Origin: an uncultured Gammaproteobacteria bacterium
GTDB lineage: Bacteria > Patescibacteriota > Microgenomatia > JALYQM01
DNA: 64,000 bases
Direction: 5' to 3'
Assembly (NCBI GenBank): GCA_964535655.1
Contig: CAZHTP010000002.1
Location: 90,054-154,053 of the forward strand
Shown: positions 5,667 through 64,000 of the stretch, one piece after another
How positions within the stretch are numbered: position 1 is the stretch's first letter
How the letters are laid out: each line of letters opens with the position of its first letter
The notes under the pieces: model-generated
The model's input: only the letters and a program-made list of their open reading frames with translations
The model's database searches: none
Told to the model about the DNA's origin: nothing
Position numbers and translations under genes: made by a program

Positions 5667-6230
5667 ATGGCACCGCTACTCATCGTAATAGCAATTATAG
5701 TAGTAGTACTACTCTACATTTGGTCTTTATATAACGGACTCGTCGTTTCCAAGAAACGGGTAGAAGTATCATGGAATGATATTGATATCCAACTCAAGAA
5801 AAGATATGACTTGCTGCCAGATCTTGTTGAAACAGCTAAAAAGGCCGCTAATTTAGATGAAAGTATATTTACAAAAGTTGCTCAGGTACGTTCTCAGGCA
5901 ATGGACACCGCAAAGACTACCGAAGATCCGACAGTCCGGGCACAAGTAGAGAGTCAGCTGAGCTCAGCAATAAATGGCTTGCGAGTAGCAGTCGAAGCCT
6001 ACCCTGATATCAAATCTCATAGCGAGTTACTTAATTTAATGAATTTAAATCGAGACATTGAAGACAAAATTGCCTACTCGCGACAGTTCTATAATCAAAA
6101 TGTTCTCGATTACAATACAAGAATTGCGGTATTCCCAGCAGTTCTCTTTGCAGCATCGATGGGCTTCTTACCGGCAAAGGCTTTCGAAGCAGCAGCTTCC
6201 GAACGTGAGGATGTGAAGGTCCAGTTCTAA
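5667..6230 (+). CDS. lemA: LemA family protein
   Basis: N-terminal TM helix followed by the characteristic LemA segment (YNGLV..KKRVEVSWNDIDIQLKKRYDLLPDLVETAKKAA). Confidence 0.75.
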   Translation: MAPLLIVIAIIVVVLLYIWSLYNGLVVSKKRVEVSWNDIDIQLKKRYDLLPDLVETAKKAANLDESIFTKVAQVRSQAMDTAKTTEDPTVRAQVESQLSSAINGLRVAVEAYPDIKSHSELLNLMNLNRDIEDKIAYSRQFYNQNVLDYNTRIAVFPAVLFAASMGFLPAKAFEAAASEREDVKVQF

Positions 6231-10677: not shown

Positions 10678-10868
10678 CCGATAAACGCGAGTCTGGAAAC
10701 TTAGTAAAAGAACCACCACAAGAGCCTGGAATCGGGAAGATAATTGATGCCGTTCCCTTACGTACATTAAGTCCTATAGATACATTAATTCAAATACTAG
10801 GTACTCAACAGCCAGATAGAACTCCTCCTGCTGAAGCACCTAAAGAAAAAGAAGTAGGTAAACCCTAA
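10674..10868 (+). CDS. Small Pro-rich hypothetical protein (64 aa)
   Basis: ORF start overlaps the gatB stop codon (ATGA). No recognisable domain. Confidence 0.3.
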   Translation: MTDKRESGNLVKEPPQEPGIGKIIDAVPLRTLSPIDTLIQILGTQQPDRTPPAEAPKEKEVGKP

Positions 10869-10874
10869 TACTAT

Positions 10875-28525: not shown

Positions 28526-28720
28526 TTGGGAGGTATGAACCTCTTATTAACCAAGAGCACAAGTAAACAACCTACTATCGCCCAACTTCGTGAACTTCTT
28601 GGGCAAGATTATGCATCACTCCCCGACAGTGATGTTGTAGCTTTGTGGGAACATGTACTCTCCCTCACAGAGGCTTTATACCAAACAGGATTACATCTAT
28701 ATTATAAGAAAGGACAGTGA
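28526..28720 (+). CDS. Small hypothetical protein (64 aa)
   Basis: ORF immediately upstream of, and overlapping, the degenerate resolvase gene. Confidence 0.25.
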   Translation: MGGMNLLLTKSTSKQPTIAQLRELLGQDYASLPDSDVVALWEHVLSLTEALYQTGLHLYYKKGQ

Positions 28721-29157
28721 ATATGAACGCTGTTATTTACACTCGTTGTGCCGTTGAAGATAGTTTAGACATGCAGGAAAAAGCGTGTCGTCAATATGCT
28801 GAGTTGCAAGGCTACCAAGTAGTCAAAACTTATTCTGATAATGGTGTGTCGGGGCTTACATCTAATCGGGTAGGGTTGCAAAACTTATTACAGGAAATCG
28901 ATAAGGGATCAACAGTTATCGCTTACGATGATACTCGGTTGGCAAGATCTGTTGAGGAGATGCACCAGTTGTATAAGATTTTTGTACAGAAAGATGTTGA
29001 TGTTCATTTGGTTAAAGCAGGTTGTTTTCCGAAGAGTCCAACCGACAAATTAGCGTTTTACCTTACCGATTTAGTAAGAAGCTTTGATAACAATATTCGC
29101 TCGGAGAGAATAAAACGTGGTCTGCGAGCTAAGAAAAACAAAGGGCTTACAAACTAG
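28717..29157 (+). CDS. Serine-recombinase catalytic-domain-only paralog with the nucleophilic Ser replaced (YTRCAVED instead of YxRVSTDEQ), probably inactive
   Basis: 146 aa aligning along a resolvase catalytic domain (DDTRLARSVEE ~ DRLGRS; C-terminal E-helix IRSERIKRGLRAKKNKG). There is no DNA-binding domain, and Ser is replaced by Ala at the active-site position. Confidence 0.6.
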   Translation: MNMNAVIYTRCAVEDSLDMQEKACRQYAELQGYQVVKTYSDNGVSGLTSNRVGLQNLLQEIDKGSTVIAYDDTRLARSVEEMHQLYKIFVQKDVDVHLVKAGCFPKSPTDKLAFYLTDLVRSFDNNIRSERIKRGLRAKKNKGLTN

Positions 29158-29181: not shown

Positions 29182-30711
29182 ATGAATGCGATCATCTATA
29201 CCAGAGTTTCAACAGATGAACAAGTTAAGGGATTTAGCTTGGGTACTCAGCTAAAGGACTGTCGGGAGTTCTGTGAGTCAAAGGGCTGGACTGTAGTTGA
29301 CGTCTTTCAAGAAGAGGGTGAAAGCGGCACTACTGACAATAGACCTGAACTGAAACGAATGCTTGCGTATCTACAGAAGCATCGAGGTTTAATCCAGTAT
29401 GTTGTAGTCTGGAAGATTGATCGCATTTCACGCCTAATGAAAGACCATTTCAAGATAACGGAGCTTATCGAGGAATGTGGTAGTGTGGTTGTGAGTAAAA
29501 CCGAGTCTTTCGATAAGACACTGTCAGGAGAGCTACAGCAGCGGATACTACAGGTGTTTAGTGAGTATGACAATAAAGTACGAGCTGAGCGATCAGTCAC
29601 AGGTACAAGAGGCGGATTAGAGAATGGTATCTGGATGAGAGGCATTCCAACAGGTTATAAAGGTAGAGATGCTCACAAAGTGCCTTTAGTTGATCCTATC
29701 ATGGGACCAATACTTGCGGATATTCTGGTTACTTTTTCTCGGGGTAATCATGAAGTAAAGCAGATAACGGAGCTTGCGAAACAAAGAGGATTGCTGACTC
29801 CTAAAGACGAAGAGGTTTCCGATAAGACCATGCATAAAATACTTCGTAACCCTTTTTACTATGGTTGGCTGTCGATGCAAGGTAAAAAGATACAGTATGG
29901 CGGGTATGGCAAACACCAGCCTTTAATAGACAAAGACACGTTCTTTAAGATTCAGTCGGCTATGCTCAGTCATAACAACAGATCAAACACACGTCATCGT
30001 AATAGAGAGGAGTTCCCTCTTAAGAAGTTGTTGAGGTGTGGTGTTTGTGGAGGAGATTTAACAGCTGGTTCATCCCCTAACAAAAAGAAAGTACTCTACT
30101 GGTATTATCACTGCCAAAAGTCTGAGCATCTACGTATTCCAAAAGATCTCATAGAGAAGCAGTTTGAAACTATGTTGGAGCGTATTCGTCCTACCGAAGG
30201 GATATTGAACCTATTTCGTTTGGCCATTAGAAACTTGGTCAATGAGCGAATGGGTGATGCGATAACTAATGTTCAACGAGTTGATAAGGAGCTGACAGCA
30301 CTCCGTGATGAAAAAAACGGATACGTGAGGATGAGAGCGAGAAACGAGCTTGATGAAGCATTGTTCTTTCAAATGCTGAGAGAGGTTGATGCTAAGATCA
30401 ACAAAAAAGAGATGATTCGTGCTGAGATGCGAGAGGAAGAAGTTGATATTGATAAGCTATTAGCTCTCTATGAAAGCCTTTTCAAAAATGTGGCGATGTG
30501 GTGGAGAGAAGCACCGCTAGAGTATAAGCAACAGATGCAACATCTGGTATACCCAAAAGGCATAACAGTTATGTCGAAGCTTGGAGAAATACAACACCCT
30601 GAATTAGGCTTAGCGTTCGCAATAGTTGATTCTTTGCGAAGTGGTAGTGCCTTGAGTAGCCCCGAGGGGAATCGAACCCCTGATCTCCAGGATGAGAACC
30701 TGGCGTCCTAG
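29182..30711 (+). CDS. Large serine recombinase (integrase)
   Basis: N-terminal resolvase domain (IYTRVSTDEQ), recombinase domain and Cys-rich zinc ribbon (CGVCGGDLTAG...YWYYHCQKS). The last ~18 codons (..PEGNRTPDLQDENLAS*) are encoded by the antisense of tRNA-Glu. Confidence 0.85.
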   Translation: MNAIIYTRVSTDEQVKGFSLGTQLKDCREFCESKGWTVVDVFQEEGESGTTDNRPELKRMLAYLQKHRGLIQYVVVWKIDRISRLMKDHFKITELIEECGSVVVSKTESFDKTLSGELQQRILQVFSEYDNKVRAERSVTGTRGGLENGIWMRGIPTGYKGRDAHKVPLVDPIMGPILADILVTFSRGNHEVKQITELAKQRGLLTPKDEEVSDKTMHKILRNPFYYGWLSMQGKKIQYGGYGKHQPLIDKDTFFKIQSAMLSHNNRSNTRHRNREEFPLKKLLRCGVCGGDLTAGSSPNKKKVLYWYYHCQKSEHLRIPKDLIEKQFETMLERIRPTEGILNLFRLAIRNLVNERMGDAITNVQRVDKELTALRDEKNGYVRMRARNELDEALFFQMLREVDAKINKKEMIRAEMREEEVDIDKLLALYESLFKNVAMWWREAPLEYKQQMQHLVYPKGITVMSKLGEIQHPELGLAFAIVDSLRSGSALSSPEGNRTPDLQDENLAS

Positions 30712-30730
30712 GCCGCTAGACGACGGGGCC
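30657..30730 (-). tRNA. tRNA-Glu (anticodon CTC)
   Basis: Minus-strand cloverleaf GGCCCCG-TC-GTCT-AGCGGCCTAGGAC-G-CCAGG-TTCTCAT-CCTGG-AGATC-AGGGG-TTCGATT-CCCCT-CGGGGCT-A, very close to canonical bacterial tRNA-Glu. Confidence 0.8.
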
Positions 30731-33476: not shown

Positions 33477-33548
33477 GGGTCGGTAGCTCAATGGTAGAGC
33501 AGCAGCCTTTTAAGCTGTTGGTTCTGGGTTCGAATCCCAGCCGACCCA
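33477..33548 (+). tRNA. tRNA-Lys (anticodon TTT)
   Basis: GGGTCGG-TA-GCTC-AATGGTA-GAGC-A-GCAGC-CTTTTAA-GCTGT-TGGTT-CTGGG-TTCGAAT-CCCAG-CCGACCC-A. Confidence 0.85.
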
Positions 33549-33600
33549 CACTATACAGTTTTTCACCTTCAATACTTGCATCATCTGTTAAAATATATTC

Positions 33601-47842: not shown

Positions 47843-49651
47843 ATGAAAAAATTTATATTTTTTTCGGCTGTGCTACTATCTCTGGTTTTTGTAAGCCAAG
47901 CATCTGCTGATTCAGAATTTAGTGAAAAAGATTCTGTTTTGTATAACATCAACGAAGATGGCTCAACCCATGTTACGCAAAACATCAAAGTCACCAACAA
48001 AACCGCAGAGTATTACACCAATAAGTACTCGTTAAGGGTAGGAACACAAAAAATAACCAATCTAAAAGCATACGATAAGGCGCGCGCCATTAAAGCAGAT
48101 CTACAAGAAGGGACTGCTGCGGCAATAACCCTTGACTTCCCCGATCAAATAATCGGCAAAAATAGCACTCGCAGTTTTACAATTGAATACGACACGCAAT
48201 CGATTGCCCAAAAGCTCGGAACATCCTGGAGCATCACAATCCCACGAGTCTCAAGTAATGATCTTGACGAATATCTAGTAGCAATTTCAGTACCACAATC
48301 ACTTGGTGCTGCTTCAACCATTTTTCCTAAGCCCGAAAGTGAGACAATTAAAGGAATAAGAACAGAATATACTTTTAGCACTGAACAAATGACTAGCTCA
48401 GGTGTAACGCTAAGTTTTGGGGATAAGCAAGTATATACTTTAGGATTAACTTATCACTTGAGTAACACGCAAAAAAATAGCGTTTACACCGAGATCGCCT
48501 TGCCGATGAACACTCCTCACCAAACCATTGTTTACGAATCACTTAACCCAAGTCCTCAATCCATCTATGCCGACCAAGATGGTAATTATATAGCTCGCTA
48601 TATTCTCAAGCCCAAAGAAAGTATTCAGGTACAATCAATCGCCAAAGCAATTGTGTACATTAATAAGCAGTACAAAGATAACAATCTGTCTGAGTCACAA
48701 AAGAGCATATATTTAGAAAAGCAGCCATACTGGGAAAGTGATGATAAAAAAATTGTAAACCTAGCAAGTGAATTAAAAACGCCCGAGCAAATATATCGCT
48801 ACGTAGTTTCAACATTAACCTATAATGCGGCGAAAGTAAGCAACAATTTTGACCGGATAGGAGCGGCCAAAATTCTATTAAGCCCCAAAAACAGTGTTTG
48901 TATGGAATTTACCGATCTATTTGTCGCGCTTGCCAGAGCTGCTAAAATCCCCGCTCGCGAGATCAACGGCTACGCGTATACAAGCGACGCAACCCTTCGC
49001 CCAGCATCACTCTCACAAGACACTCTTCACGCTTGGCCTGAATATTATGACGATGACCAAGGTTGGGTTCAAGTCGACCCAACCTGGGAAAACACCACAC
49101 ACGGTGTTGACTACTTTAATTCTTTTGATCTCAATCACGTTGCGTTTGTAAAAAAAGGTGTAAGTAGCCAGACACCGTATCCCGCTGGTGCGTACAAAGG
49201 TGTAGATGAAAATACGCACGATGTCGTTGTTAACTTTATCTCCGAAGAACCACAGATTAATAAGGCTATTAATACAACGCTTGATACCCCAAAAAGCCAT
49301 GTTGCAGGCGCAACTTTGAATTGGAAAATAGGGATTAAAAACACCGGCAACACTGGATTTTTGGGAGACATCCTTGAGGAGGTCCAGTTTAAAGATAAAA
49401 AAACTTCACAACAGTTTCCTGTTATAGTCCCACCATTTGGATCAACAAGTATTACGGGTAATGGTCTAAAAACCGAAATGAAAGACAGTGGTACAGCTTT
49501 GATTACAGTCAAAGCCCTTGACCACGTTGTAGATAAGCAGGTAGAGATTGTTCCATTTTATCGCCACTCGGCTACTTTAGTGGGATTTCTGTATTTACTT
49601 GGTGCACCACTAGTTGCCATCTTTTCGTACAGAGTACTCCACAAAAAATAA
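47843..49651 (+). CDS. Secreted transglutaminase-like cysteine protease superfamily protein with C-terminal TM anchor
   Basis: Signal peptide, Cys-His-Asp core (CMEFTDLFVALARAAKIPAREINGY ... HAWPEYY ... WVQVDPT), and a C-terminal hydrophobic helix. Confidence 0.65.
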   Translation: MKKFIFFSAVLLSLVFVSQASADSEFSEKDSVLYNINEDGSTHVTQNIKVTNKTAEYYTNKYSLRVGTQKITNLKAYDKARAIKADLQEGTAAAITLDFPDQIIGKNSTRSFTIEYDTQSIAQKLGTSWSITIPRVSSNDLDEYLVAISVPQSLGAASTIFPKPESETIKGIRTEYTFSTEQMTSSGVTLSFGDKQVYTLGLTYHLSNTQKNSVYTEIALPMNTPHQTIVYESLNPSPQSIYADQDGNYIARYILKPKESIQVQSIAKAIVYINKQYKDNNLSESQKSIYLEKQPYWESDDKKIVNLASELKTPEQIYRYVVSTLTYNAAKVSNNFDRIGAAKILLSPKNSVCMEFTDLFVALARAAKIPAREINGYAYTSDATLRPASLSQDTLHAWPEYYDDDQGWVQVDPTWENTTHGVDYFNSFDLNHVAFVKKGVSSQTPYPAGAYKGVDENTHDVVVNFISEEPQINKAINTTLDTPKSHVAGATLNWKIGIKNTGNTGFLGDILEEVQFKDKKTSQQFPVIVPPFGSTSITGNGLKTEMKDSGTALITVKALDHVVDKQVEIVPFYRHSATLVGFLYLLGAPLVAIFSYRVLHKK

Positions 49652-49713
49652 AAAAAATCCCACCGAGGTATTACTGATGTTGTAAACAACAAAAGTAGGA
49701 TACCCCGGTGGGG
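49641..49713 (-). terminator. Rho-independent terminator for the minus-strand GC-rich gene, probably acting bidirectionally
   Basis: 13-bp stem CCCACCGAGGTAT/ATACCCCGGTGGG with one mismatch. On the minus strand it is followed by a T-run (complement of the 49641-49657 A-run). Confidence 0.55.
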
Positions 49714-49724
49714 CGAATACAAGG

Positions 49725-50714
49725 CTAGGCGCACTTGGCGACTAGAGCGCGAAGTCTCTCGACTTCGGCTAGCCAGTAACGCCCTGTGGCGGTAAGGTCG
49801 TTTCGATCGCTTTCAAGGTCACCTAGGACGTCTTGCGCTATGATGATCTGGCCGTGCTTTGTCTCAATCTGAGACTCAATGCCAGCTATCTGCGCCTTCG
49901 TGTCCTGTATTTCTCCCTTAACCTCTTGGATTGACTGCATCAGTCGGGACCTTGTCTCTCGATCAGGCTCATCCCTTAGCTCTGCCTGCAGCTTGGCGAG
50001 CTCCTCTTGAAGAGATACTAAAAGGTCCTCGGCAGCAGCCAGCTCTCTAACCAGCGCGCGCTCTGCCGCTATTAACCCTTCGAGAGTCGACTTTTGGGTC
50101 GCGATCCGACCTTCGACCTGCCGTAGGGATTTCGCGATCTCCTTAGCCTTTTCCTGTGCAGCGGCGAGCAGCGCACGAAGCTCGTTGCAGTCGCCTGACG
50201 CGGCTGCAGGTGACGGCGACGGCGCCGAGGTCGGGGCGGGTTGCGACTCGTCGTCGTTGTTCTGTTGGGCCGCTTGGTAACCACCATTGACATAGAATGC
50301 CCACAGCTCATCGCGATCTCTGACGGCTTGCCCATATTTCGCATGGTATTGCGGCTCTGTAATAACCCATGCGTTGATGTCCTGCCATTCTTGATAGGCC
50401 TTGCTCGTGGTCATATACCCTAGCGGGTTCCACACTGGCCCTACCAGAATGATGCTATAATCTCCCGCACGCGGGAGATCGTCCGTAGGCAAAACGTCAT
50501 TGATACCGACCGACTCCGGTGGTGACGTTGGCGCTGTTTCCACTGATTCCGGGGCCGCCGTTGGTGCCGATGGCACTGCGGTTGCGGCCGGCCGAGCAGG
50601 CGGCGGGGCAGGGGGGAGACAATCCCCTGTGTCCCTGCACCCAGCGCTCACTGGCGAAACCCCGAGGAGGATCCCGATCACCACTGCGAACACGAGCCAA
50701 ATTCTGGTTCTCAT
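49725..50714 (-). CDS. Secreted/lipoprotein-like protein with Pro/Ala-rich region and a long C-terminal coiled coil, encoded by a GC-rich (~60%) gene
   Basis: Start taken at MRTRIWLVFAVVIGILLGVSPVSAGC, with RBS AAGGAGG 5 nt upstream. C-terminal heptad-like LRALLAAAQEKAKEIAKSLRQVEG... region. Composition contrasts with the AT-rich flanks. Confidence 0.65.
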   Translation of the reverse strand: MRTRIWLVFAVVIGILLGVSPVSAGCRDTGDCLPPAPPPARPAATAVPSAPTAAPESVETAPTSPPESVGINDVLPTDDLPRAGDYSIILVGPVWNPLGYMTTSKAYQEWQDINAWVITEPQYHAKYGQAVRDRDELWAFYVNGGYQAAQQNNDDESQPAPTSAPSPSPAAASGDCNELRALLAAAQEKAKEIAKSLRQVEGRIATQKSTLEGLIAAERALVRELAAAEDLLVSLQEELAKLQAELRDEPDRETRSRLMQSIQEVKGEIQDTKAQIAGIESQIETKHGQIIIAQDVLGDLESDRNDLTATGRYWLAEVERLRALVAKCA

Positions 50715-51030
50715 TGCGCCCTCCTTAACGAGCAAGAATAGGGGAACATCCCCATATCAAATTCTTGCCCTTGGCACACGAGAGGCTCATACAAATGAGC
50801 GCCTTGTGTGCCAAAGGAGGATTTATTTATAGCCTTGTAAACGTGCAAATATGTATTCTGTATAGTAAATTAAATTAAGAAATTCTTAATCATTCGCCTA
50901 CAGAATCCCCGTAGTATATCAAAAATAACAGACGCAGTCAACTACTATAGGCCTACGTCGTAATACCTCAAAACTCTGGTGAAAAAGTTTAACGATGTAC
51001 TGAAAATATTAAAATTGTTAACATACACCT

Positions 51031-54882: not shown

Positions 54883-54953
54883 GGGCTGGTAGCTCAGCGG
54901 TAGAGCAGTTGCCTCTTAAGCAATTGGTCCTGGGTTCGAATCCCAGTCAGCCC
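54883..54953 (+). tRNA. tRNA-Lys (anticodon CTT). The 3' 38 nt are also the antisense of the 3' end of recombinase A
   Basis: GGGCTGG-TA-GCTC-AGCGGTA-GAGC-A-GTTGC-CTCTTAA-GCAAT-TGGTC-CTGGG-TTCGAAT-CCCAG-TCAGCCC-A. Confidence 0.8.
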
Positions 54954-56715
54954 ACAAGTTATCATTTCTGACTTCGAACTTTCCTTCGCTGGCAAGCCGT
55001 TGCATTATGTCTTGCGGTAAGCGTAAATCTATTCTTACTTGGTACGGTATTACTTGGTCTTCCTTCTTTCGACCCGCTATAACGTCTTTTTTTGTCGCTT
55101 TTCGAGTGTAAACATGGATTCTATCAACGATAAGATGTATTAAAGTTGACACTTCTTGCCTGTCTGTCATTAGCCCGTCTAAAAATGGTTTATATTGCTT
55201 TGCGAATAACTTAAAGGTTCGAGCATAAACGTTTGAAATTTCACCTTCACCGATTTGAAATTGTATTGTTGCTAAGTCTTTCTTTAATTCGACTTCTTTT
55301 CTATTTATGTTGTCCATTTTTTCGTCATATTCTGCGTCGCTAATATCGCCTCGCTCATACATACGTTTTACGTTTTGACGTCGTCGTGGCAATTCGTTTA
55401 GAACTTTTGTTATATCTGATTGTTTTTTCTCTAGCAGTCTTTTTCTGGCCTTTGTCGATTGAAGTGAATTAACATGGTTGTAGACGCTTTGGGGGTCATT
55501 TAGTAAGTCTTTTACAAAGTTCGATACAAATTGTTCTATCTCGTCGGCTGGGAAGGGAATAGCCCTACAAACAGTCGAATACTTTTTTGTATTCTTTGCA
55601 CCACATTGGTAGTAGTAAGCCCGTTTACCGTTCTTCTTAATAACCTTACTTGTTCCCGTCCAGTTAAGCGGGTCACGGTCAGAATAAGGGTCGTAGCAAG
55701 CATGACATTTTAGAAGACCAGACAATAAATAAAGGTGATTATCAGCCGTTTTCTGGCTATTTCGTAAGGCGATATCTTCTTTAATGCGTTGTTGCGCCAA
55801 TTCAAATATACCGAAGTCGATAATTGCGTCATGCTGGTATGGCGATTTTTCCCATAAAGACCTGTCAAGACGCTTACTTCCCTGGTTCTTGTTGTAATAA
55901 TAAATACCTAAATACACTTCGTCTTTAATAATTGCTCTAACAGTCGAATCGCGCCAAAAATGTGGGTCATTTATCTTCGTGCGGCCTGCCCGTCTTTTGC
56001 CATATTTAATCGCGGAAGGCGAAGGTGTGAGAACTTTTTTATCTATTAGGTAGTCAGCAATTTGCTGGGTATTTCTTTTTTCGACTACAAAAAGTTCAAA
56101 AATGTTGCGCACAATTTCAGTTTCAGGTTGTAAAATTTGAAGCCGCTTATCTTTATCCTTTTTATAGCCATAAGGCGCGTTTGCACCCATATAGACGCCA
56201 CGTTCTATCGCTTGCTTTTTGCCACCCTGCGTTCTATCTTTTGTTGTTTCCCTTTCGAGTTCAGCTACTACCCCGATAATACCTAGCATTGCTTTACCGA
56301 AGGGCGTAGAGGTATCTATACTTTCATTCGCAGAAATGAATTTTATGTCGTGAGCCTCGAAGTATTCAGTTACTTCCAGTAGGATTTTTAGCTTACGGGC
56401 GAATCTATCAATACGATAAACAAGAACAATATCAAAAGGTTTTACGCCACCTGGCGCGTTTTCTATATCTTCTTTCATTCGTATAAACGCGGGTCTTTGC
56501 TCTAAGGGCGTTGTGCCACTAACACCTTCTTCTTTGTATAAATACTGTTTGCCAGCTAAAACCATAGCGGGTTTACCGTTATCAAGATTGCCTTTAGACG
56601 CAATAATCCCTTCTATTGAAGCCTTTTGCAAAGGAATGCCGTATTTTTCCATTTGTTCGTCCGTAGATACTCGAAGATATCCCGCGGCACGAAGTGTTAC
56701 TTGTTGTTTATTCAT
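54916..56715 (-). CDS. Large serine recombinase A
   Basis: YLRVSTDEQ catalytic motif, recombinase domain, and Cys-containing zinc-ribbon region (CHACYDP...YYYQCGAKN). The C-terminus ..WADWDSNPGPIA* is translated from the antisense of the tRNA-Lys T-arm and acceptor. Confidence 0.85.
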   Translation of the reverse strand: MNKQQVTLRAAGYLRVSTDEQMEKYGIPLQKASIEGIIASKGNLDNGKPAMVLAGKQYLYKEEGVSGTTPLEQRPAFIRMKEDIENAPGGVKPFDIVLVYRIDRFARKLKILLEVTEYFEAHDIKFISANESIDTSTPFGKAMLGIIGVVAELERETTKDRTQGGKKQAIERGVYMGANAPYGYKKDKDKRLQILQPETEIVRNIFELFVVEKRNTQQIADYLIDKKVLTPSPSAIKYGKRRAGRTKINDPHFWRDSTVRAIIKDEVYLGIYYYNKNQGSKRLDRSLWEKSPYQHDAIIDFGIFELAQQRIKEDIALRNSQKTADNHLYLLSGLLKCHACYDPYSDRDPLNWTGTSKVIKKNGKRAYYYQCGAKNTKKYSTVCRAIPFPADEIEQFVSNFVKDLLNDPQSVYNHVNSLQSTKARKRLLEKKQSDITKVLNELPRRRQNVKRMYERGDISDAEYDEKMDNINRKEVELKKDLATIQFQIGEGEISNVYARTFKLFAKQYKPFLDGLMTDRQEVSTLIHLIVDRIHVYTRKATKKDVIAGRKKEDQVIPYQVRIDLRLPQDIMQRLASEGKFEVRNDNLWADWDSNPGPIA

Positions 56716-57103
56716 GGTCGTTATTAGTTCCTGGTATGTTATCTTTAACTACCTGCTCGTCTTTTGCGCGAAATCCATGTGTCAATTTATGAAGTAGTTG
56801 CTTATCCTCGGTTTCAGACGACCTTATAACCACTTCTAGCTTCCGTACACCTGTATTCTGCTTGAAGTCTATTGAATACTTATTCAGAACGAGAATGTCC
56901 AGCAAAACCCCACCTAGAGCCTGTAAATCGCTTTCTTTATAAGGTTCTTCCATATCCTGAAACTGGCTCGATTTGAAGTTTTTGTAAGGAATACCCCATT
57001 TATAAATGCACGCATTCCTTTCTATGAGAACAGACATTAGGTCGTCTGGTTGAAATAAGCCGTCTGCTTCTTCGGGAAGTTCGTATTTAGAGTTCTTTTT
57101 CAT
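56708..57103 (-). CDS. Hypothetical 131-aa protein co-transcribed with recombinase A (8-nt overlap)
   Basis: ORF overlaps the recombinase start. No recognisable domain. Its position fits an accessory or directionality factor. Confidence 0.4.
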   Translation of the reverse strand: MKKNSKYELPEEADGLFQPDDLMSVLIERNACIYKWGIPYKNFKSSQFQDMEEPYKESDLQALGGVLLDILVLNKYSIDFKQNTGVRKLEVVIRSSETEDKQLLHKLTHGFRAKDEQVVKDNIPGTNNDHE

Positions 57104-57152
57104 AAATGTTATTTCTAATTATAGCTTAAAGATGTATAATTTAGTATAAGTT

Positions 57153-57341
57153 ATGCCAAGTAAAACAAAACTACTGCGAATAAGGGAAGCCGCCGAACTG
57201 TTAGGCGTAAATCCCGAAACGTTACGACGCTGGGACAATGAAGGGCGTCTAAAGGCTATTCGCATAGGTAAAAGGCAAGATAGAAGATATAAGCCAGAAG
57301 ACGTTCAAAGGATTATTGAAGGTAAAACAAACAATGAGTAA
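57153..57341 (+). CDS. Excisionase/AlpA-like (HTH_17, MerR-superfamily) DNA-binding protein
   Basis: LLRIREAAELLGVNPETLRRWDNEGRLKAIRIG matches the Xis-type HTH pattern. Confidence 0.6.
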   Translation: MPSKTKLLRIREAAELLGVNPETLRRWDNEGRLKAIRIGKRQDRRYKPEDVQRIIEGKTNNE

Positions 57342-58818
57342 CGATAAGGGAAATACACAGCCAAAAATACTTTTTTCAGACCACTTTAATGTAGATAAAA
57401 AGGCACTTGACGAATATGGTGCTTTCGATATTTCATTAGTTGCGGATTTCCCCTTATTCATTGACCCTTTCCTTCTTTTTAATAGTAAAAAGCCTGAATA
57501 CCAGCAACTGCATGACGGAATGATTGCCTATTTGCGATTCTTACGAGACAAGTCGGTTTCCCAGCCAATAGATAAAGGATTATTAGCGGCGTGGTATCGC
57601 TTCAAAGAAGTCAAACAAAATTGGTTAGGTTTTTCTGTAGACGGAAATAGCGGTAGCGCGTTAGGGGCGGACTTTGCTAAAGCATTAAATGAAAACTTTG
57701 CGAAAATCTTTACCGATTACGGTGAAGAAAAGGTAACAAGAAGTTCCCATTTAGAAAAATTGTGTCTGATAAAAGACGGTGTTGGTAAAGACAATATAAG
57801 TGATTTCACGACTAATCTCACCTTAGACTTCTTGCTTCAATATACCCAGTCATTCGCCAAGAAATATATTGACCCCTCACTTTGCAAGGAATTCCGAATC
57901 CCTCGCGTTCGCTTTAACTATGAAACTGAATCGTGGGAAGAAGGTACTTACACACTACCGTCTTATCAAAATGACTTCGTAATTTTAACCCCAAAAGACT
58001 TACTGACAAAAGATGAAACCTGGATAAATAAAGACGACCTTGTTGAAGATTTTTATAATATCCCGAATGCTATTTCTAATGATGAACTTCGTGCGAAAAT
58101 CAACAACTACTTTAGAAGCGTATTGCCAAAAGACCCTAAAAAGAAAGACGAAAAAGAAGCTGCTATAAAAACGATACTAGAATTCCCTGAACTTATTGAC
58201 TACTACATTAAACACAAGGAAGATAACGGCGACAGAGCTACAAGCATTAGCGAACAGAAAGTAGCCCATTCAGAGTTGATGTATGTAGACCAATTTACGG
58301 CTTTCGCAAAACTGCTTGCCGAAAAGACGGACTTTTATAAAACGCCGTATGATTCTTATGACGAAGCTATGCAGCGGGTACAATACCTAAAATCAGTTAT
58401 TGAAAATAACGATGGGTACAGGTTCTTTTATGTAGATAATGAGCCGATAAGACGCGAAGAAGACTTAAAAATTGCCTACCGCCTTACTTGGCGTGGTTCT
58501 ACATTCGATTTTAATACCGAAGTAAATAATGGCCGTGGCCCAGTCGATGTAAAAGTGTCTAAAGGTTCGGCCGATAAAAGTCTTGTCGAACTGAAACTAG
58601 CTACAAATACACAACTTGAAAGGAATTTGCAAAACCAGGTGGGTGTTTATGAAGAAGCAAACAACACGAAGAAAAGTATCAAAGTTATTATCTACTTTAC
58701 CTTTCAAGAATTGCGACGCGTTCAAGGAATACTTAAAAGGTTAGGCCTCGAAGGAAAAGAAAATGTCGTTTTAATTGACGCACGGAAAGATAACAAAACG
58801 TCGGCTTCAAAAGTATAA
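57316..58818 (+). CDS. Hypothetical 500-aa protein with a C-terminal PD-(D/E)xK-like motif (candidate nuclease)
   Basis: The C-terminal segment GRGPVDVKVSKGSADKSLVELKLA fits a PD-x(n)-ExK nuclease motif. The gene ends 3 nt before the methyltransferase gene. Confidence 0.4.
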   Translation: MKVKQTMSNDKGNTQPKILFSDHFNVDKKALDEYGAFDISLVADFPLFIDPFLLFNSKKPEYQQLHDGMIAYLRFLRDKSVSQPIDKGLLAAWYRFKEVKQNWLGFSVDGNSGSALGADFAKALNENFAKIFTDYGEEKVTRSSHLEKLCLIKDGVGKDNISDFTTNLTLDFLLQYTQSFAKKYIDPSLCKEFRIPRVRFNYETESWEEGTYTLPSYQNDFVILTPKDLLTKDETWINKDDLVEDFYNIPNAISNDELRAKINNYFRSVLPKDPKKKDEKEAAIKTILEFPELIDYYIKHKEDNGDRATSISEQKVAHSELMYVDQFTAFAKLLAEKTDFYKTPYDSYDEAMQRVQYLKSVIENNDGYRFFYVDNEPIRREEDLKIAYRLTWRGSTFDFNTEVNNGRGPVDVKVSKGSADKSLVELKLATNTQLERNLQNQVGVYEEANNTKKSIKVIIYFTFQELRRVQGILKRLGLEGKENVVLIDARKDNKTSASKV

Positions 58819-58820
58819 TT

Positions 58821-59831
58821 ATGAAATATATTGCATATACAGTAAAAGGCCTTGAAGATGTCGCTAGGCAAGAAATTAAAGATTTAATCCGTGAAGTGAA
58901 CTTTGCAGACTTAAAACCTAAAAGGATTATCTTCGAAACTAACGATACTAACGCATTAACTAGCTTAAAAACGATTGATGATATTTGTTTACTACTTGTT
59001 ACAAGTGAAGTATCAAACGTCGACGAAGTTTTAGACACTTTTAAGGATATAAACCTAGAAGCGGCAAGGGAACACATAGAACAATATCGAAAGATTGGGG
59101 ATACTTTTTCTGTTACTTTTAGTTTGGCTAAAACGAAGATTAAAACAGAAGAACTTCAAAGCTCTCTAAGTAAGATTATTAGCGAGCGTTACAACTGGGA
59201 ATATACAGAACTCGACCACTCTAATTTCGATGTACGCGTTTTTATAGATAATAAAGAACTGTATGTCTCGGTGCGTCTTACAGAAAAGCCATTATTCCAT
59301 AGAAGTTACCGCACAGTTTCTTCTAAAGGTGGTTTAAGACCTAGTATTGCCGCCGCCCTGGTTAAACTTGCCACAATGGATAGCAAAGGTACTGTCGTAG
59401 ATAATTTCTGTGGTAGTGGAACGATACTCGCCGAAGCATACCTTGCAGGTAATGATATTTACGGTGGGGATATTGAAAATACAGCAGTCGAAGCTACTTT
59501 ACAGAACCTATCTAATTTAGGGTGTAAAACAGACGGTAAGATTAAAAGGTTAGACGCTCTAAAAGCACCATGGAAGGATAATCAATTCGATTTTGCTATA
59601 TCTAACTTGCCATGGGACAAGCAAATTGAAATTAAAAGCGTTACCGATTTATATGTCGGTTCGCTATCAGAATATGCTCGTATCTTAAAACCAGACGGAA
59701 GATTATGTCTATTAGTATCCAAACCAGATTTGCTAATCAAACACGCTAAGACATTTTTCCCAAAGAAGAAGATAGAAAAGATTCAAATAGGATTTTTAGG
59801 GCAAACACCTTCAATAATTACGATTATTTAA
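58821..59831 (+). CDS. SAM-dependent methyltransferase with N-terminal THUMP-like domain (RlmL/Trm14/UPF0020-like)
   Basis: N-terminus MKYIAYTVKGLEDVARQEIKDL (THUMP-like), motif I VDNFCGSGTILAEA (cf. DPMCGSGT), and catalytic motif IV-like ISNLPWD (cf. DPPY/NPPW). Confidence 0.55.
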   Translation: MKYIAYTVKGLEDVARQEIKDLIREVNFADLKPKRIIFETNDTNALTSLKTIDDICLLLVTSEVSNVDEVLDTFKDINLEAAREHIEQYRKIGDTFSVTFSLAKTKIKTEELQSSLSKIISERYNWEYTELDHSNFDVRVFIDNKELYVSVRLTEKPLFHRSYRTVSSKGGLRPSIAAALVKLATMDSKGTVVDNFCGSGTILAEAYLAGNDIYGGDIENTAVEATLQNLSNLGCKTDGKIKRLDALKAPWKDNQFDFAISNLPWDKQIEIKSVTDLYVGSLSEYARILKPDGRLCLLVSKPDLLIKHAKTFFPKKKIEKIQIGFLGQTPSIITII

Positions 59832-60328
59832 GAAGGTTTTATATTTTCTTCAATCCACTTATCTAAATTCATTTGTTGATTGTAGGTAATATATTCTTCG
59901 TCTTCGGTGGGTTCTTCAAACATATCTAATGCTCGTTTAAGTGTTACTTCTTCGAGCTGACCCCGTTCTTGTGTTTTTTCGTTGATTTCCCACCGTCTTT
60001 TGATTTCCTCTAATGGAACATTAAGATAGATAACATTAAACTTTTTCCCTAAACTTTCCGCTATATTTCTGGCTGTTTGTCGCTCGCTTCTTTTAAGATT
60101 ACCCAGGTCTAAAACGACCGTTTTGTCTTCTTTCAGTAGCTTTTTTAGCTTTTCGTATCCTTCTGAATAAACGGTATTCCAGTCTTCTTGTGTCATATCT
60201 TCCACTTCAAAGCCTTTTTCGTCTATAACGTCGTCCATAGAAACTTTGATAAACCCAAAACGATTTACGAGTTCTTTAGTTAAAGTTGTTTTTCCTGAAT
60301 ATGGAAGCCCTGTTAATATATAAAGCAT
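59828..60328 (-). CDS. Small P-loop NTPase/kinase (AAA_33/polynucleotide-kinase-like)
   Basis: Walker A GLPYSGKTT within a 166-aa single-domain protein. Its stop overlaps the methyltransferase stop (convergent). Confidence 0.5.
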   Translation of the reverse strand: MLYILTGLPYSGKTTLTKELVNRFGFIKVSMDDVIDEKGFEVEDMTQEDWNTVYSEGYEKLKKLLKEDKTVVLDLGNLKRSERQTARNIAESLGKKFNVIYLNVPLEEIKRRWEINEKTQERGQLEEVTLKRALDMFEEPTEDEEYITYNQQMNLDKWIEENIKPS

Positions 60329-60352
60329 GTTTAGATTATATCTGATAACGCA

Positions 60353-60952
60353 TTATTTAGCTTCTTGTTCTTTGCTTCTTACGTAATCGTGGTGTCGATT
60401 AAGAAGGTTTTCAAGTAACCTGGCTTCTTCTTCGTTTCTTGGTGCGCCAAGTTGTTGTGAATCACCTCGTTTTTTATTTAATTTTTCAAAGTATTTCATT
60501 TGGTCTAAATACCACATTGCGGCACGAACATTTGGTTGTCTTTCTGATACTAGAATATAAATTGTTTCTTTCGTTAAAGGGTGCGTAAAGGCACGGTAAC
60601 ATGGCTTACGCCCCTCTATAGCAAATGCCAAAGCTAATTGCGCTTGCATTGTTAAATTGTCCTTTGCCAGGCTAGCGACCCGCTGAAATGTTTCAGAGCT
60701 GGCCATGTATTTTTGCCGAGTATTTTCAGGGATATGTGCGTAAATAGCCGAATTTTTGTACGTATGGCCGAGGGATAGATAAAACAAAAAGTTATGAAGT
60801 TTTTCGGCGGTTAATTCTATCTTTCTACCACGCCTTTTTGGGTCTTTCGCGTTAGACAATTCTTTTACAATACTGCGATACACGCTATCAGAAACGTGTT
60901 GTTGAATAAATTCTTCTTCAAATGTTTGTATTACTTCTTTTCTTATATCCAT
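60353..60952 (-). CDS. Hypothetical protein (199 aa)
   Basis: ORF immediately downstream of recombinase B. The basic N-terminal segment (KRRGRKIELTAEKLHNFLFYL) could be DNA-binding. Confidence 0.35.
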   Translation of the reverse strand: MDIRKEVIQTFEEEFIQQHVSDSVYRSIVKELSNAKDPKRRGRKIELTAEKLHNFLFYLSLGHTYKNSAIYAHIPENTRQKYMASSETFQRVASLAKDNLTMQAQLALAFAIEGRKPCYRAFTHPLTKETIYILVSERQPNVRAAMWYLDQMKYFEKLNKKRGDSQQLGAPRNEEEARLLENLLNRHHDYVRSKEQEAK

Positions 60953-60956
60953 AGGC

Positions 60957-62864
60957 TTAATTAGCTAGGCTTTGTAGAAAACTGTTATTTCTAGAAGCAA
61001 AGTGAAGAATTTTAAGGTCAATATCGTTATAATAGAACTGTAACGGAAGTATTTCTTTCTTGTTTAGTTCTGGGTCAGAAATGCTGTCCCACCATTTATC
61101 ATTTTCCACCGTGAACCCAGAATCCAATAAGTTATTTAACATATTATGTGGTAATTTAATCTGGATATCTATCCCATTTGGGATCATTTGGTTGTCTTTT
61201 TTTTGACCAGCTATTTTGTCTTCTTCATTGCGTGGTCTTGCCTGAACAATAATTTTATCTACGATTGAACTAATTAGTTCTTTCAAGAGTTTTGGATCTC
61301 TATTTGTGCTTTGTAAAAAGTCTTTGTATTTTGTCTTAAATTGTTCAAAAACATCCAAATACCCGTCATATAAAATGAAATCACTCAATTGCCGATCAAT
61401 TTCAATAATCTTGTTTTCATAATCTAATTGCTTTTTAATAATTTGTTCTTTATACGCTTGTGCTTTTTCAGCAGAATACACTCCGTGCAATAACGCTTCT
61501 TCATTTCGTGCAATTTGTGCAGGTATACCACCAAGCAATTTCTTGTACTGCTTAATATCGTCTTGCAACTTATCCTTAGCTAATCTTGTAGATTTAAGAT
61601 CACCATAGTGTTTGTAAACTGCTGTAGGGTCTTTTAAGAGGTTTAGTATAAATTGTGTGACATACGCTTCAATTTGCTTAGCAGGAATAGGAATCACAGG
61701 GCATACAGTATCAAACTTTTTTCGGTTTTTCCTATTGCATTGGTAATAGTAAATATATTCTGTCTTGGCTTTATTTTTATGTTTAACACCAGTCCATCCG
61801 AATGATTGATTTTTGGTTAGTAACTTATTTTGATCCAAACTTTCACAATATTTACACTGCAAAAGACTTCCTAATAAATATTCATTTGTATTCGGCTGAT
61901 GATTTATTTTCCTCTCCTTTAGATCTGCGACTCGTAACTGTACAAGCTCAAATAAATGAAAGGGAATGATTGCTGGTTGACTGTATTTTGAGAGAGTCCA
62001 CTCATCTTTAGCGAGCTTTTTACCTTTTTTGGTTTTATTAAAGTAGTAACTACCAGTATATATATCATTTGTTAAAATTTTTTTGACTTGCTCTGCTCTC
62101 CAAAAGAAAATACTATTTTTTTTATTACTATCACCAAGTCTTTTATTGTTTATTATGGCTGAGTCTTCGGGACTTTCTATCATTTCTTCTTGTAGTAAAT
62201 CTGCAATCTGCTGATAAGTGTATTTATGGACACTAAAAAGTTCATGTATTCTTTGAACAATTTTTTCCTCACTAGGTAAAATAATCAATTTCTTATCTTC
62301 ACCACGAATGTATCCATATGGGGGTTGTTTTCCTGCTACCGAACCTTTGTTTTTTGCTACTTCTAGTCCTGACTGAGTTCTTTCAAGAATAACCTCACGT
62401 TCTAGCTCAGCTATCACTCCCATTATGCCAAGCATAGCCCTACCGAACGAATTTGAGGTATCGATGCTTTCTAATGCCGATATGAATTCAACTTTATTCT
62501 TAGCTAGAAAGTCACTTATTTCAAGTAAAATTGTTAGTTTTCTAGCGAATCTATCAATTTTATACACAAGTACAACATCAAAAGGTTTATTTTCACCAGC
62601 ATTTACTAAGTCTTCAATTAGCCTAGAAAACGCTGGACGTTCGTTAATGGGGGTGGTTCCTGAAATGCCATCATCAACATAAACATAGTTCTCACCAGCG
62701 AGAATCATTCGAGGTCTATTATCGTCAAGTACTCCTTTTGTTTTGATAATTGCTTCTACTGTTGCACGTTGCATTTCCAGACCGAACCTCTCTTTCTGAT
62801 CTTCGGTGGAAACTCGTAAATATATTGCAGCTTTTATTTGAGTTTGGGTATTTTCAATTATCAT
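60957..62864 (-). CDS. Large serine recombinase B (paralog of A)
   Basis: IYLRVSTEDQ catalytic motif. Aligns with recombinase A through the N-terminal ~170 aa at high identity. Zinc-ribbon Cys cluster (CKYCESLD...YYYQCNRKN). Confidence 0.85.
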   Translation of the reverse strand: MIIENTQTQIKAAIYLRVSTEDQKERFGLEMQRATVEAIIKTKGVLDDNRPRMILAGENYVYVDDGISGTTPINERPAFSRLIEDLVNAGENKPFDVVLVYKIDRFARKLTILLEISDFLAKNKVEFISALESIDTSNSFGRAMLGIMGVIAELEREVILERTQSGLEVAKNKGSVAGKQPPYGYIRGEDKKLIILPSEEKIVQRIHELFSVHKYTYQQIADLLQEEMIESPEDSAIINNKRLGDSNKKNSIFFWRAEQVKKILTNDIYTGSYYFNKTKKGKKLAKDEWTLSKYSQPAIIPFHLFELVQLRVADLKERKINHQPNTNEYLLGSLLQCKYCESLDQNKLLTKNQSFGWTGVKHKNKAKTEYIYYYQCNRKNRKKFDTVCPVIPIPAKQIEAYVTQFILNLLKDPTAVYKHYGDLKSTRLAKDKLQDDIKQYKKLLGGIPAQIARNEEALLHGVYSAEKAQAYKEQIIKKQLDYENKIIEIDRQLSDFILYDGYLDVFEQFKTKYKDFLQSTNRDPKLLKELISSIVDKIIVQARPRNEEDKIAGQKKDNQMIPNGIDIQIKLPHNMLNNLLDSGFTVENDKWWDSISDPELNKKEILPLQFYYNDIDLKILHFASRNNSFLQSLAN

Positions 62865-62953
62865 AATAGTTCATGGTAGAGTATCTCTGTTTAGTAAAAT
62901 TATTATGATTATCCTATATAACTGTGAACTATATCAAGAGTTTGTTATGAGTT

Positions 62954-63571
62954 TTAAGCCCATTCAATGTCTCGTGTGCTTGCTAGCTCTTTTCCATATT
63001 TTTGCAAGATTCGTTTTATACGGTCTTCTCCTGCTTGCTTACTTTCCTGAACTACTGGTTCAGTATGGACTGTTAAGGTGATGTTAAGTTTTGGAATCAT
63101 ATCCATAGCAAGTTTCATTGATTCAAAATATGTTCTAGTTTTGTACGAGCGTTTGATTGTATCTGTTTCTTGGTACATTTGTTCACGGAAGTAAGGAACG
63201 TCGATAACAAGGAACTGTTTTATTTGCTCTGATAGCGTTTCCTTGACGTTTATCTTCTCTATATCGAATTTTTGTTGCTCCTTTACTAGTGGTTTTGTGC
63301 TTACTTCTGAGGGTGTGAAGTGTTTATTTCGATAGTTATAAAGTGCGGTTCTGCTTGGTAGTGGTGTATTCGGATAGCTATCCGTTAATTGTTTAAGTAT
63401 TGAAGATGGGGAATAGTGTTGTTTGAGTAGTTTATCTATGTTTTGTTTTATCTCAGTTGGCAGTGATTGAATGCCGTCAACAAATCCTGCTTTTCGTATT
63501 TGTCTGGCTTTGTGTAATTGCCGTAGACGGTGGTTCTTGGTGTGTTTCGATACTTTACTCATACTGGACAT
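62954..63571 (-). CDS. Hypothetical basic protein (205 aa)
   Basis: ORF upstream of recombinase B on the same strand. Confidence 0.4.
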   Translation of the reverse strand: MSSMSKVSKHTKNHRLRQLHKARQIRKAGFVDGIQSLPTEIKQNIDKLLKQHYSPSSILKQLTDSYPNTPLPSRTALYNYRNKHFTPSEVSTKPLVKEQQKFDIEKINVKETLSEQIKQFLVIDVPYFREQMYQETDTIKRSYKTRTYFESMKLAMDMIPKLNITLTVHTEPVVQESKQAGEDRIKRILQKYGKELASTRDIEWA

Positions 63572-63697
63572 AGTACACCCTTTTTTGACTCATTTAGCAA
63601 GGTGATTATGTAGTGTACTGGACGGTTTTTGAATATTTTATTTGAAACTCCCTCTATCTGAACTTACTATATTGGGAGTTTTCCAATACTGTATTTT

Positions 63698-63922
63698 CTA
63701 TACAGTTGAAGGGTATAAGTCGTCTACCGTTGCATTGAGTGCTTTTGCAATTCGGTAAAGGTTATATGAAGACGGTGTAATTCGGGCATTTTCGATCAAG
63801 TTTATATACGTTCTGGAAAACCCTGATTCGCCAGATAGATCATCAAGGGTCAAATTCTTCTTTTTTCGTATATTTCGGATATTGTTTCCGACTATTTCCA
63901 TAAACTTTGACTTGGAAAGCAT
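63698..63922 (-). CDS. XRE-family helix-turn-helix transcriptional regulator
   Basis: IRNIRKKKNLTLDDLSGESGFSRTYINLIENA is a classic HTH_3 pattern. Confidence 0.7.
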   Translation of the reverse strand: MLSKSKFMEIVGNNIRNIRKKKNLTLDDLSGESGFSRTYINLIENARITPSSYNLYRIAKALNATVDDLYPSTV

Positions 63923-64000
63923 GCCTTATTTATAGGAAAATGGACAAATTTTCACATCATAATATCGTTAACATTAGTTATTGATAATGCTATTAAGTAA

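Follow-up and report, generated by a model that had tools for sequence, protein, structure and literature searches.

Evidence for a large serine recombinase element at the 3' boundary of a tRNA-Lys gene whose integration splits the recombinase gene

Overview of the element

Described here is a putative 6.14-kb integrative element located in a 64,000-nt stretch of DNA (the window; contig CAZHTP010000002.1 of assembly GCA_964535655.1, positions 90,054-154,053), with positions 54883-64000 being the region of interest. The element, designated element A, abuts the 3' end of a tRNA-Lys(CTT) gene and encodes a large serine recombinase (LSR), LSR A. We consider it quite probable that element A entered at the exact 3' boundary of the tRNA with a crossover at A73-C74, that this event split the LSR gene, and that a second element, B, lies in tandem with it. 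The features of the region are listed in Table 1. Related loci and contigs are designated by L-numbers (L002, L082, and so on), and the core dinucleotide is written AC on the tRNA strand, which corresponds to GT on the LSR strand.

Open reading frame (ORF) A displays the Resolvase (PF00239, E = 3.3e-31), Recombinase (PF07508), and Zn_ribbon_recom (PF13408) domains of Pfam. The R15-V16-S17 segment, which contains the catalytic S17, is invariant across 40 homologues, and the four zinc-ribbon cysteines (C337, C340, C371, and C383) are likewise invariant in the homologue alignment. Matches to LSR A in the PDB include a 500-aa integrase (9iu2), YokA of SPbeta (9dxh), the TP901-1 integrase, and gamma-delta resolvase. 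Judged by its domains and catalytic residues, ORF A is a bona fide LSR, as had been proposed in an earlier interpretation of this DNA made without database searches (hereafter the sequence-only reading). No match to the tyrosine recombinase family was observed among the ten ORFs called in the 54.9-64 kb region, and the recombinases there are of the serine type.

Table 1. Positions of the features discussed, numbered from the first base of the window
Feature	Coordinates	Strand	Basis or composition
Host tRNA-Lys(CTT), target gene	54883-54954	+	ARAGORN 54883-54955; Rfam RF00005, 72.5 bits, 54883-54954
Putative attL	54932-54979		B arm 54932-54953 = tRNA T-arm and acceptor 3' strand; core AC 54954-54955; P' arm 54956-54979
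LSR A as read when integrated, 599 aa	54916-56715	-	Pfam, catalytic residues, comparison with L082
Conserved 131-aa ORF, 3' end overlapping the LSR start	56708-57103	-	Adjoins the LSR in L082 and L083-L086; no family match
62-aa HTH_17/MerR-type DNA-binding protein	57153-57341	+	Pfam HTH_17, E = 1.8e-12; PHROG "excisionase and transcriptional regulator"; kept in L082 and L083
500-aa conserved core protein, DUF8370/DUF8371	57316-58818	+	Pfam on the L082 and L083 orthologues; PHROG 30194, E = 6.7e-40, full length; PADLOC PDC-M36A, E = 1.6e-21
Variable cargo	58821-60328		Pfam: THUMP and UPF0020 methyltransferase 58821-59831 (+); AAA_33 kinase 59828-60328 (-)
Conserved 199-aa ORF by the far end	60353-60952	-	77-80% DNA identity to L082 1254-1850; weak small-terminase-like helix-turn-helix match
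Displaced last 44 codons and stop of LSR A, here read as the LSR B tail	60957-61091	-	WDSISDPELNKKEILPLQFYYNDIDLKILHFASRNNSFLQSLAN followed by a stop; conserved in related elements
Putative attR of element A = left junction of element B	61067-61116		Sharp similarity start, pattern match 61067-61091; P arm 61067-61090 (reverse complement GGGACAGCATTTCTGACCCAGAAC); core AC 61091-61092; flank 61093-61116 = P'-type arm from the last LSR B codons
LSR B proper, residues 1-591	61092-62864	-	Paralogue of A, 41% identity; recombinase of the neighboring element
Further genes of element B, which runs off the window	62954-64000	-	ORF calls, Pfam: 205-aa ORF 62954-63571; XRE regulator 63698-63922

Boundaries of element A

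The tRNA-Lys(CTT) gene is intact through the discriminator base, A73, at position 54954 and is followed by a C at position 54955. Residues 1-587 of LSR A are encoded by the element (54955-56715), and the host tRNA, read in antisense, supplies residues 588-599 (WADWDSNPGPIA). The overlap between the ORF and the tRNA gene amounts to 39-40 nt, and the TAA stop codon (54916-54918 read in reverse complement) coincides in part with the anticodon (54915-54917). The ARAGORN and Rfam assignments, in combination with the ORF coordinates, thus agree with the sequence-only reading in that the last 12 codons of the recombinase are antisense to tRNA-Lys(CTT) and terminate at the anticodon. That reading further placed the attP within the 3' end of the recombinase gene, a model in which the crossover would be in the anticodon loop.

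The closest relative of element A, at locus L082, displays 94% DNA identity to the window from 54932 to 58817 and encodes an LSR with 98% protein identity, but it adjoins tRNA-Val(GAC). Complete identity extends through ..AACTTGTGGGC, and from the acceptor stem onward the sequences diverge. The same left break point is observed at other tRNAs in L003, L004, L005, and L083, and LSRs with 75-80% identity to LSR A are located at Val-TAC, Glu-TTC (twice), and Glu-CTC. Because the 94%-identical element carries tRNA-Val(GAC) instead, the tRNA-antisense tail is host DNA and is not borne by the element. The attP can still be placed inside the 3' part of the gene, but the break in the relatives corresponds to A73/C74 (54954-54955) rather than to the anticodon loop. 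Note that the stop codon in that loop is incidental and marks no crossover, because it is supplied by the anticodon-loop sequence of tRNA-Lys itself. All LSRs located at Lys tRNAs (CTT or TTT) terminate 39 nt inside the tRNA, and 66 of 122 family proteins end exactly at the junction. Seven tRNA genes are present in the window, none of which encodes CCA; that for tRNA-Lys(TTT), at 33477-33549, likewise ends in ..CCCA-C, which includes the core dinucleotide, and is without an element.

At the other end, the similarity between the window and L082 resumes leftward from 61091 with GTGGGACAGCATTTCTGAC (the conserved arm GTGGGACAGCATTTCTGAC..GAAC). This far arm starts sharply at the G/TGGGACAGC boundary, always after G, in at least eight independent contexts, namely L082, L002, L004, L005, L083-86 (six unrelated flanks), plus L088 and L172. 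Small database ORFs that enter from additional flanks, unrelated to one another, extend up to the same Trp, in agreement with this right boundary. The attR had been predicted to lie beyond position 64000 as a direct repeat of the tRNA-Lys 3' segment, GGTCCTGGGTTCGAATCCCAGTCAGCCC. It is instead located inside the window, and no second copy of that segment is present in the window at three or fewer mismatches. Nor was a convincing repeat of a tRNA 3' segment found in the ~10 kb of flank searched for each related locus, where seeds of at least 11 nt gave only other tRNA genes or chance matches.

The attR and attL have in common only the 2-bp core, plus a degenerate, loosely tRNA-like arm. The core AC is the sole sequence common to every attL and attR examined and occurs in direct orientation. 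It is taken to be the crossover dinucleotide, formed by the discriminator A73 and the next C. As delimited by these two junctions, element A is 6,137 bp in length (54956-61092), and both boundaries uphold the proposal of an LSR-driven integrative element at tRNA-Lys(CTT).

The rebuilt attachment site and recognition of the target

Joining the two ends of the element across the core yields a predicted attP of ~50 bp, GTTCGAA-GTCAGAAATG-ATAACTT-GT-GGGACAG-CATTTCTGAC-CCAGAAC. The site is pseudo-palindromic with a perfect 10-nt inverted repeat at positions 8-17 on either side of the core, and both of its arms contain GTTC at positions 21-24. It looks like a typical serine-integrase site, one that is positioned inside the LSR reading frame. 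Indeed, the P' arm of attL (AAGTTATCATTTCTGACTTCGAAC) doubles as coding sequence for ..KFEVRNDNL of LSR A. Throughout the family GTTC is found 20 nt before the core in the LSR tail, and the GTTC of the inner arm provides the Phe codon of the conserved KFEV/RFGV motif. Given that its position is fixed across the family, the KFEV/RFGV codons would also serve as a DNA site. In the tRNA arm, the GTTCGAA of the T-loop occupies positions 13-20 with GTTC at positions 17-20, and it is thus 4 bp nearer to the core than in attP.

According to this model, the host half-site for the LSR would be the acceptor and T-arm of the tRNA, and the element half-sites would be the terminal 24 nt of conserved coding sequence in the LSR gene (KFEVRNDNL) and the weakly tRNA-like far arm. 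All six A-type targets carry GGGANTCGAACCC at positions 10-22 from the core, and because this sequence is shared among them several tRNAs are usable. To judge from the five tRNA species at which LSRs at least 75% identical to LSR A are located, target choice by the A-type enzymes is relaxed. The junction of the excised circle is predicted to read ..AATGATAACTTGTGGGACAGCATTTC.. / ..GAAGTCAGAAATGATAACTTGTGGGACAGCATTTCTGACCCAGAAC.., and excision of element A alone would leave ..CCCAGTCAGCCCACCATTTATCATTTTCCAC...

The proposed displaced codons of LSR A

The far arm leads into a coding extension which, in the rebuilt circle, continues LSR A. These displaced codons are found on the LSR strand at the far end in L082, L002, L004, L005, L083-86, L088, and L172. 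The extension comprises 44-47 codons in the family (WDSISDxELKRQEILPLQFYYDDIDIKILHYAT..) and is in the LSR frame across the rebuilt junction. In all six elements tested it is the only stop-free frame, with the other five frames carrying stops in every element. Beyond the 27-nt arm, nucleotide differences at codon positions 1, 2, and 3 number 62, 53, and 185, respectively, and the median dN/dS of the extension is 0.1 (14 pairs). These values are evidence that the extension codons are under selection at the protein level. At the boundary this frame lacks a start codon of its own, and a stop immediately upstream closes it in L082. In other subfamilies, distal ends were sought with the palindrome and with a weight matrix as guides, and they were recovered only in L004, L006, L016, L021, and L023. 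Recognizably related peptides follow the distal arms of the distant subfamilies L006, L021, and L016. The codon phase of the core differs in L023, but a matching shift of the peptide keeps it in frame with its LSR after joining.

The putative recombination site thus lies inside the integrase ORF, with 44-47 codons (dN/dS ~0.1) on its distal side, and integration would split the gene. Only the last 44 of 631 residues are displaced, and the catalytic and DNA-binding domains are retained in the integrated copy. In the simplest reading, the excised circle would encode a 631-aa enzyme and the integrated copy would consist of a 587-aa core with a tail supplied by the tRNA.

Two related loci contain additional copies of the terminal sequences. 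L023 carries two identical copies of the far arm and extension, at positions 3552 and 6407, each preceded by the same hairpin-forming flank; the arrangement points to a stack of elements, or to degraded ones, upstream of a single LSR at tRNA-Val(TAC). In L011, an exact 16-nt copy of the LSR tail and core (AAGATTGATAATTTGT) occurs at 6180-6195 inside a minus-strand ORF, 5.6 kb upstream of the real junction, and could be the remnant of an older insertion or a chance match. Among IMG/VR contigs only two family members are found, one of which, L089, lacks both a terminal repeat and a tRNA following the LSR. The sole viral-contig match to the attP inverted repeat, L087, was rejected as a chance palindrome in a GC-rich phage gene. 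An empty site was also sought by way of the radical-SAM neighbor of L083, the homologues of which are not syntenic.

The neighboring element

LSR B (PF00239, E = 1.2e-33) confirms the second paralogous LSR that had been noted ~4 kb from the first. Its ORF, when A's displaced codons are included, extends from 60957 to 62864 and encodes 635 aa. In the AlphaFold model of LSR B the body is confident, and long helices formed by residues 395-520 lie between the zinc-ribbon elements. The LSR B tail displays the family geometry, namely its own P'-type arm and core with GTTC 20 nt before the core. It abuts the P arm of element A at 61092, and the LSR B frame runs on into A's displaced codons. A-type elements elsewhere end against non-LSR flanks in at least six contexts. 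Because an attachment junction separates A from B, and because of these non-LSR flanks, the two are read as tandem elements rather than as one element with two recombinases. The sequence-only reading had allowed for either arrangement; it is the tandem one that stands. The XRE regulator that it had assigned to the region was also recovered, within element B. A second P arm, which would mark the right end of element B, was not found in 61100-64000.

Locus L172 (GCA_964432675.1) displays the UvrC-holin-CofD-SecG-SBP gene order seen in the window at 51-54.5 kb. At its tRNA-Lys(CTT) lies a decayed mini-element of ~1 kb (10001-11063), in which the far arm and extension are followed by only the C-terminal 251 aa of an LSR; its outer flank resembles an LSR-B-type tail. 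The window itself contains a third such enzyme, LSR C (29182-30711, plus strand, 509 aa), with Resolvase, Recombinase, and Zn_ribbon domains and 25% identity to LSR A. It reads into tRNA-Glu(CTC) (30656-30730, minus strand) and ends in ..SSPEGNRTPDLQDENLAS before its stop codon. A 146-aa ORF with a resolvase domain only (28717-29157) precedes it. The far end of the LSR C element was looked for and not found.

Distribution of the family

A protein search retrieved more than 380 homologues, of which the named ones are from lineages of the candidate phyla radiation (CPR; Patescibacteria). Conservation among them ends at ..F(E/G)V(K/R)xxNL, which is followed by a stop codon or by the antisense of various tRNAs. 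Of the 27 CPR-family loci that have the ORF end on the contig and an identity of 31% or more (36% or more in all but one), 23 show overlap between the LSR ORF and the 3' end of a tRNA. Given this proportion, the abutment of LSR and tRNA is not due to chance. The tRNAs at the 23 loci are Val-TAC, Glu-TTC, Lys-CTT, Lys-TTT, Gly-TCC, Gly-CCC, Ala-TGC, and Leu-CAG. Among distant LSR homologues from other phyla only 1 of 34 abuts a tRNA, and that one is from Peregrinibacteria, a CPR lineage. As gauged by these searches, the element family is widespread in and confined to CPR genomes.

Many records of metagenome-assembled genomes (L002, L004-L007, L015-L017, and L026-L028) are labeled "uncultured Gammaproteobacteria," "Pseudomonadales," or "Yersinia" and carry CPR-type loci in CPR-like neighborhoods. 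The same holds for one contig labeled Methanofastidiosum (L025). The taxonomic labels of these records look unreliable.

Gene content of element A

The core module common to L082 and L083 comprises the LSR, the overlapping 131-aa ORF, the divergent HTH_17 gene, and the 500-aa protein. Neither the 131-aa ORF, the 199-aa ORF, nor the extension gave a match in a Pfam search. The HTH_17 protein, which agrees with the Xis-like helix-turn-helix gene of the sequence-only reading, is a candidate regulator or directionality factor, and the 131-aa and 199-aa ORFs are further candidates for accessory genes. The 500-aa protein may be a defense gene or a maintenance gene: the phage-defense candidate PDC-M36A of PADLOC matches its N-terminal half, and PHROG 30194 is uncharacterized. 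In L082 the cargo at the same position is an ABC transporter. Elsewhere in the window, a patch at 49500-51000 with a GC content of 0.53-0.54, as compared to ~0.40 for the genome, coincides with a 336-aa minus-strand ORF (49725-50735).

Proposed mechanism and alternative explanations

On the basis of the junctions described above, the LSR would insert the element at the exact 3' boundary of a tRNA by standard LSR catalysis, with strand exchange at A73-C74. The mature tRNA (residues 1-73) would be untouched and only its 3' trailer replaced. Integration would split the LSR gene such that codons 1-587 stay by the tRNA and the last 44 codons go to the other end, and the particular tRNA hit would decide the LSR tail, be it an immediate stop or a few antisense-tRNA codons. 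The full-length, 631-aa protein would then be made only from the excised circle. The presence or absence of the C-terminal peptide might alter the activity, stability, or directionality of the enzyme. We put forward, tentatively and at less than even odds, the idea that the peptide is a built-in sensor of the integration state, with the 631-aa circle form being integration-competent or stabilized and the 587-aa core differing in directionality or stability. On that idea, this would be the first bacterial, serine-type self-splitting integrase. Because the universal T-arm is recognized at a fixed distance from the tRNA 3' end, the enzyme could also be one that naturally docks DNA at the tRNA genes of a wide range of organisms.

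Several observations weigh against this mechanism. Neither an excised circle nor a free attP or an empty attB was detected. A scan of metagenome contigs for the circle junction gave a single match, L088, which was rejected because it is a further attR with a host flank that ends in AACTTG by coincidence, and a scan of viral contigs with the P arm gave nothing. Profile searches with the extension peptide against a clustered collection of 5.8 billion proteins and a library of 1.84 billion representatives retrieved only short read-in ORFs. The extension has pLDDT (predicted local distance difference test) values of 40-56 in the structure model, a low confidence at which no structural role can be proposed. 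The host-side trailers (B' arms) of the A-type targets display no clear common motif. Finally, the GTTC offset between attP and the tRNA arm is 4 bp, versus 5 bp in the Listeria integrase model (PMC3783163).

Some of these points would be expected if the natural recombinase ended at ..NL(W) and the far 44 codons were conserved as an attP arm, as a promoter or leader for the 199-aa gene, or as a separate peptide. Over half of the family proteins do end at the junction with all known LSR domains, AlphaFold gives the peptide no confident fold, and no protein in the two collections joins an LSR body to the peptide, such a fusion being seen only for LSR B in the window. That account must nevertheless contend with the third-position bias of 185 versus 62 and 53 beyond the 27-nt arm, the dN/dS of ~0.1, and the stops in the five other frames. 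In addition, the peptide has no start codon of its own, is closed upstream in L082, and is always continuous with the LSR after joining, L023 included. We thus regard a naturally short recombinase as unlikely. The model drawn from the sequence-only reading fares worse still: an attP holding a copy of the tRNA-Lys 3' half, a crossover in the anticodon loop, restoration of the tRNA by the element, and a displaced fragment marking attR beyond the window. ORF A does end in the anticodon loop with its last 12 codons an exact tRNA antisense, and such a layout is the rule for tyrosine integrases (PMC4383910). With a 94%-identical element at Val-GAC, relatives of 75-80% identity at Val-TAC, Glu-TTC, and Glu-CTC, no repeat of a tRNA segment in the window or the related flanks, a far end at 61091-61092, and 66 of 122 family proteins stopping right at the junction, it is scarcely credible here.

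Two further explanations concern the element as a whole. LSR A and LSR B might act as paired subunits within a single element that depends on both, in the manner of CcrA and CcrB in SCCmec, in which case the site at 61.09 kb would be internal. The two paralogous genes are 4.2 kb apart on the same strand, and the hybrid frame joins B to A's distal codons. We hold this arrangement to be very improbable, because A-type elements end at the same nucleotide by non-LSR flanks in L082, L002, L004, L005, L083, and L088, the LSR B tail has its own complete P'-type arm and core, and the homologues are mostly single LSR genes at tRNAs. Least probable of all is that the LSR is a domesticated host gene that resides beside tRNAs, for example for regulation or inversion, and is not mobile. 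The wide and uniform tRNA linkage across CPR lineages and the lack of observed circles would fit, but near-identical copies occur at different tRNAs with different cargo, both ends are sharp with the 2-bp core in direct orientation, some copies are decayed or arranged in tandem, and the GC content drops to ~0.33-0.36 across element B as compared to ~0.39-0.40 in the flanking chromosome and most of element A. Insertion by an LSR that cuts at the tRNA boundary, copies none of the tRNA, and uses the conserved T-arm as half of its target accounts for closely related enzymes using many tRNAs and for elements piling up in tandem.

Comparison with known systems

The large serine integrases of phages and integrative and conjugative elements (A118/LI, Bxb1, phiC31, TP901-1, and SprA of SPbeta) share with the CPR family the catalytic, recombinase, and zinc-ribbon domains and the inserted coiled coil. 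In the structure of the Listeria integrase, the attP half-sites are 25 bp in length and the outer (ZD) motif is shifted 5 bp toward the center in attB (PMC3783163). The predicted sites described here appear alike in being short, with a 2-bp crossover, pseudo-palindromic attP arms of ~25 bp, and an outer motif nearer the center in attB. Unlike those integrases, the CPR family targets the terminal nucleotide of a tRNA, and near-identical enzymes use several tRNAs. The attP is furthermore inside its own reading frame, such that integration would remove the last 44 codons. In the largest survey of LSR attachment sites the word tRNA never occurs (PMC10083194).

Islands of the Islander type, which employ tyrosine integrases, are similar with respect to insertion on the 3' side of a tRNA, an adjoining integrase gene, a functional tRNA, and tandem accretion at one tRNA. 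They differ from the CPR elements, in which the enzyme is of the serine family, no tDNA fragment is carried or displaced, and only 2 bp are shared. Serine-family enzymes associated with a tRNA integration site are also seen in tycheposons and in phiRSM. The phiRSM enzyme is a small one of the resolvase type, and its attP and attB share a segment that matches the tRNA 3' end. According to the preprint on Prochlorococcus tycheposons, 27 of 937 tycheposons and related elements carry an LSR (bioRxiv 10.1101/2020.12.28.424599), and its passages on serine recombinases describe no split gene, terminal-nucleotide crossover, multi-tRNA targeting, or mechanism. The resolvase-like integrase of phiRSM at a tRNA gene is among the examples cited in PMC7192596.

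Genes split by an internal recombination site, together with a tRNA target, are characteristic of the "suicidal" archaeal integrases of SSV1, pTN3, and pT26-2. Gene-splitting integrases have been described as exclusive to archaea and as tyrosine enzymes (PMC8371274). In the SSV type the enzyme is a tyrosine recombinase (Phage_integr_3) from an archaeal host and its catalytic domain becomes separated, whereas the bacterial serine enzyme considered here would lose only a 44-residue tail. Another parallel is provided by the immunity systems of mycobacteriophages such as BPs and Brujita (clusters G, N, and P), where the attP resides in the repressor gene, the integrase is of the tyrosine type, and the part lost from the repressor is a degradation tag resembling ssrA (PMC9262239). 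In both cases the attP is inside a coding sequence and the C-terminus differs between the free and integrated states. The end of the shortened protein is set by the tRNA junction in both, via one flanking host base in BPs and via the last bases of the tRNA in the CPR element. It is the recombinase itself, and not a repressor, that is split in the latter.

Genomic islands classically land at tRNA genes, a habit so far credited to tyrosine integrases. The CPR serine integrases would reach these genes differently, namely by a cut at the last nucleotide, with no tRNA copy and with the T-arm as half of the target. An attP within the recombinase gene has otherwise been reported only for tyrosine integrases of archaea, and in the CPR family it would link the integration state to the form of the enzyme. 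Mobile elements of CPR bacteria are poorly known, and the present family represents a common small class (~6-12 kb in the mapped loci) with exact boundaries that make automatic annotation possible. The family also offers genome engineering a set of serine integrases with a natural target motif in the tRNA genes examined, one that is widely conserved among tRNAs. By every feature that could be tested here the CPR family is of the LSR type, and it differs from the systems described above in its target, in the apparent position of its crossover, and in its split gene.

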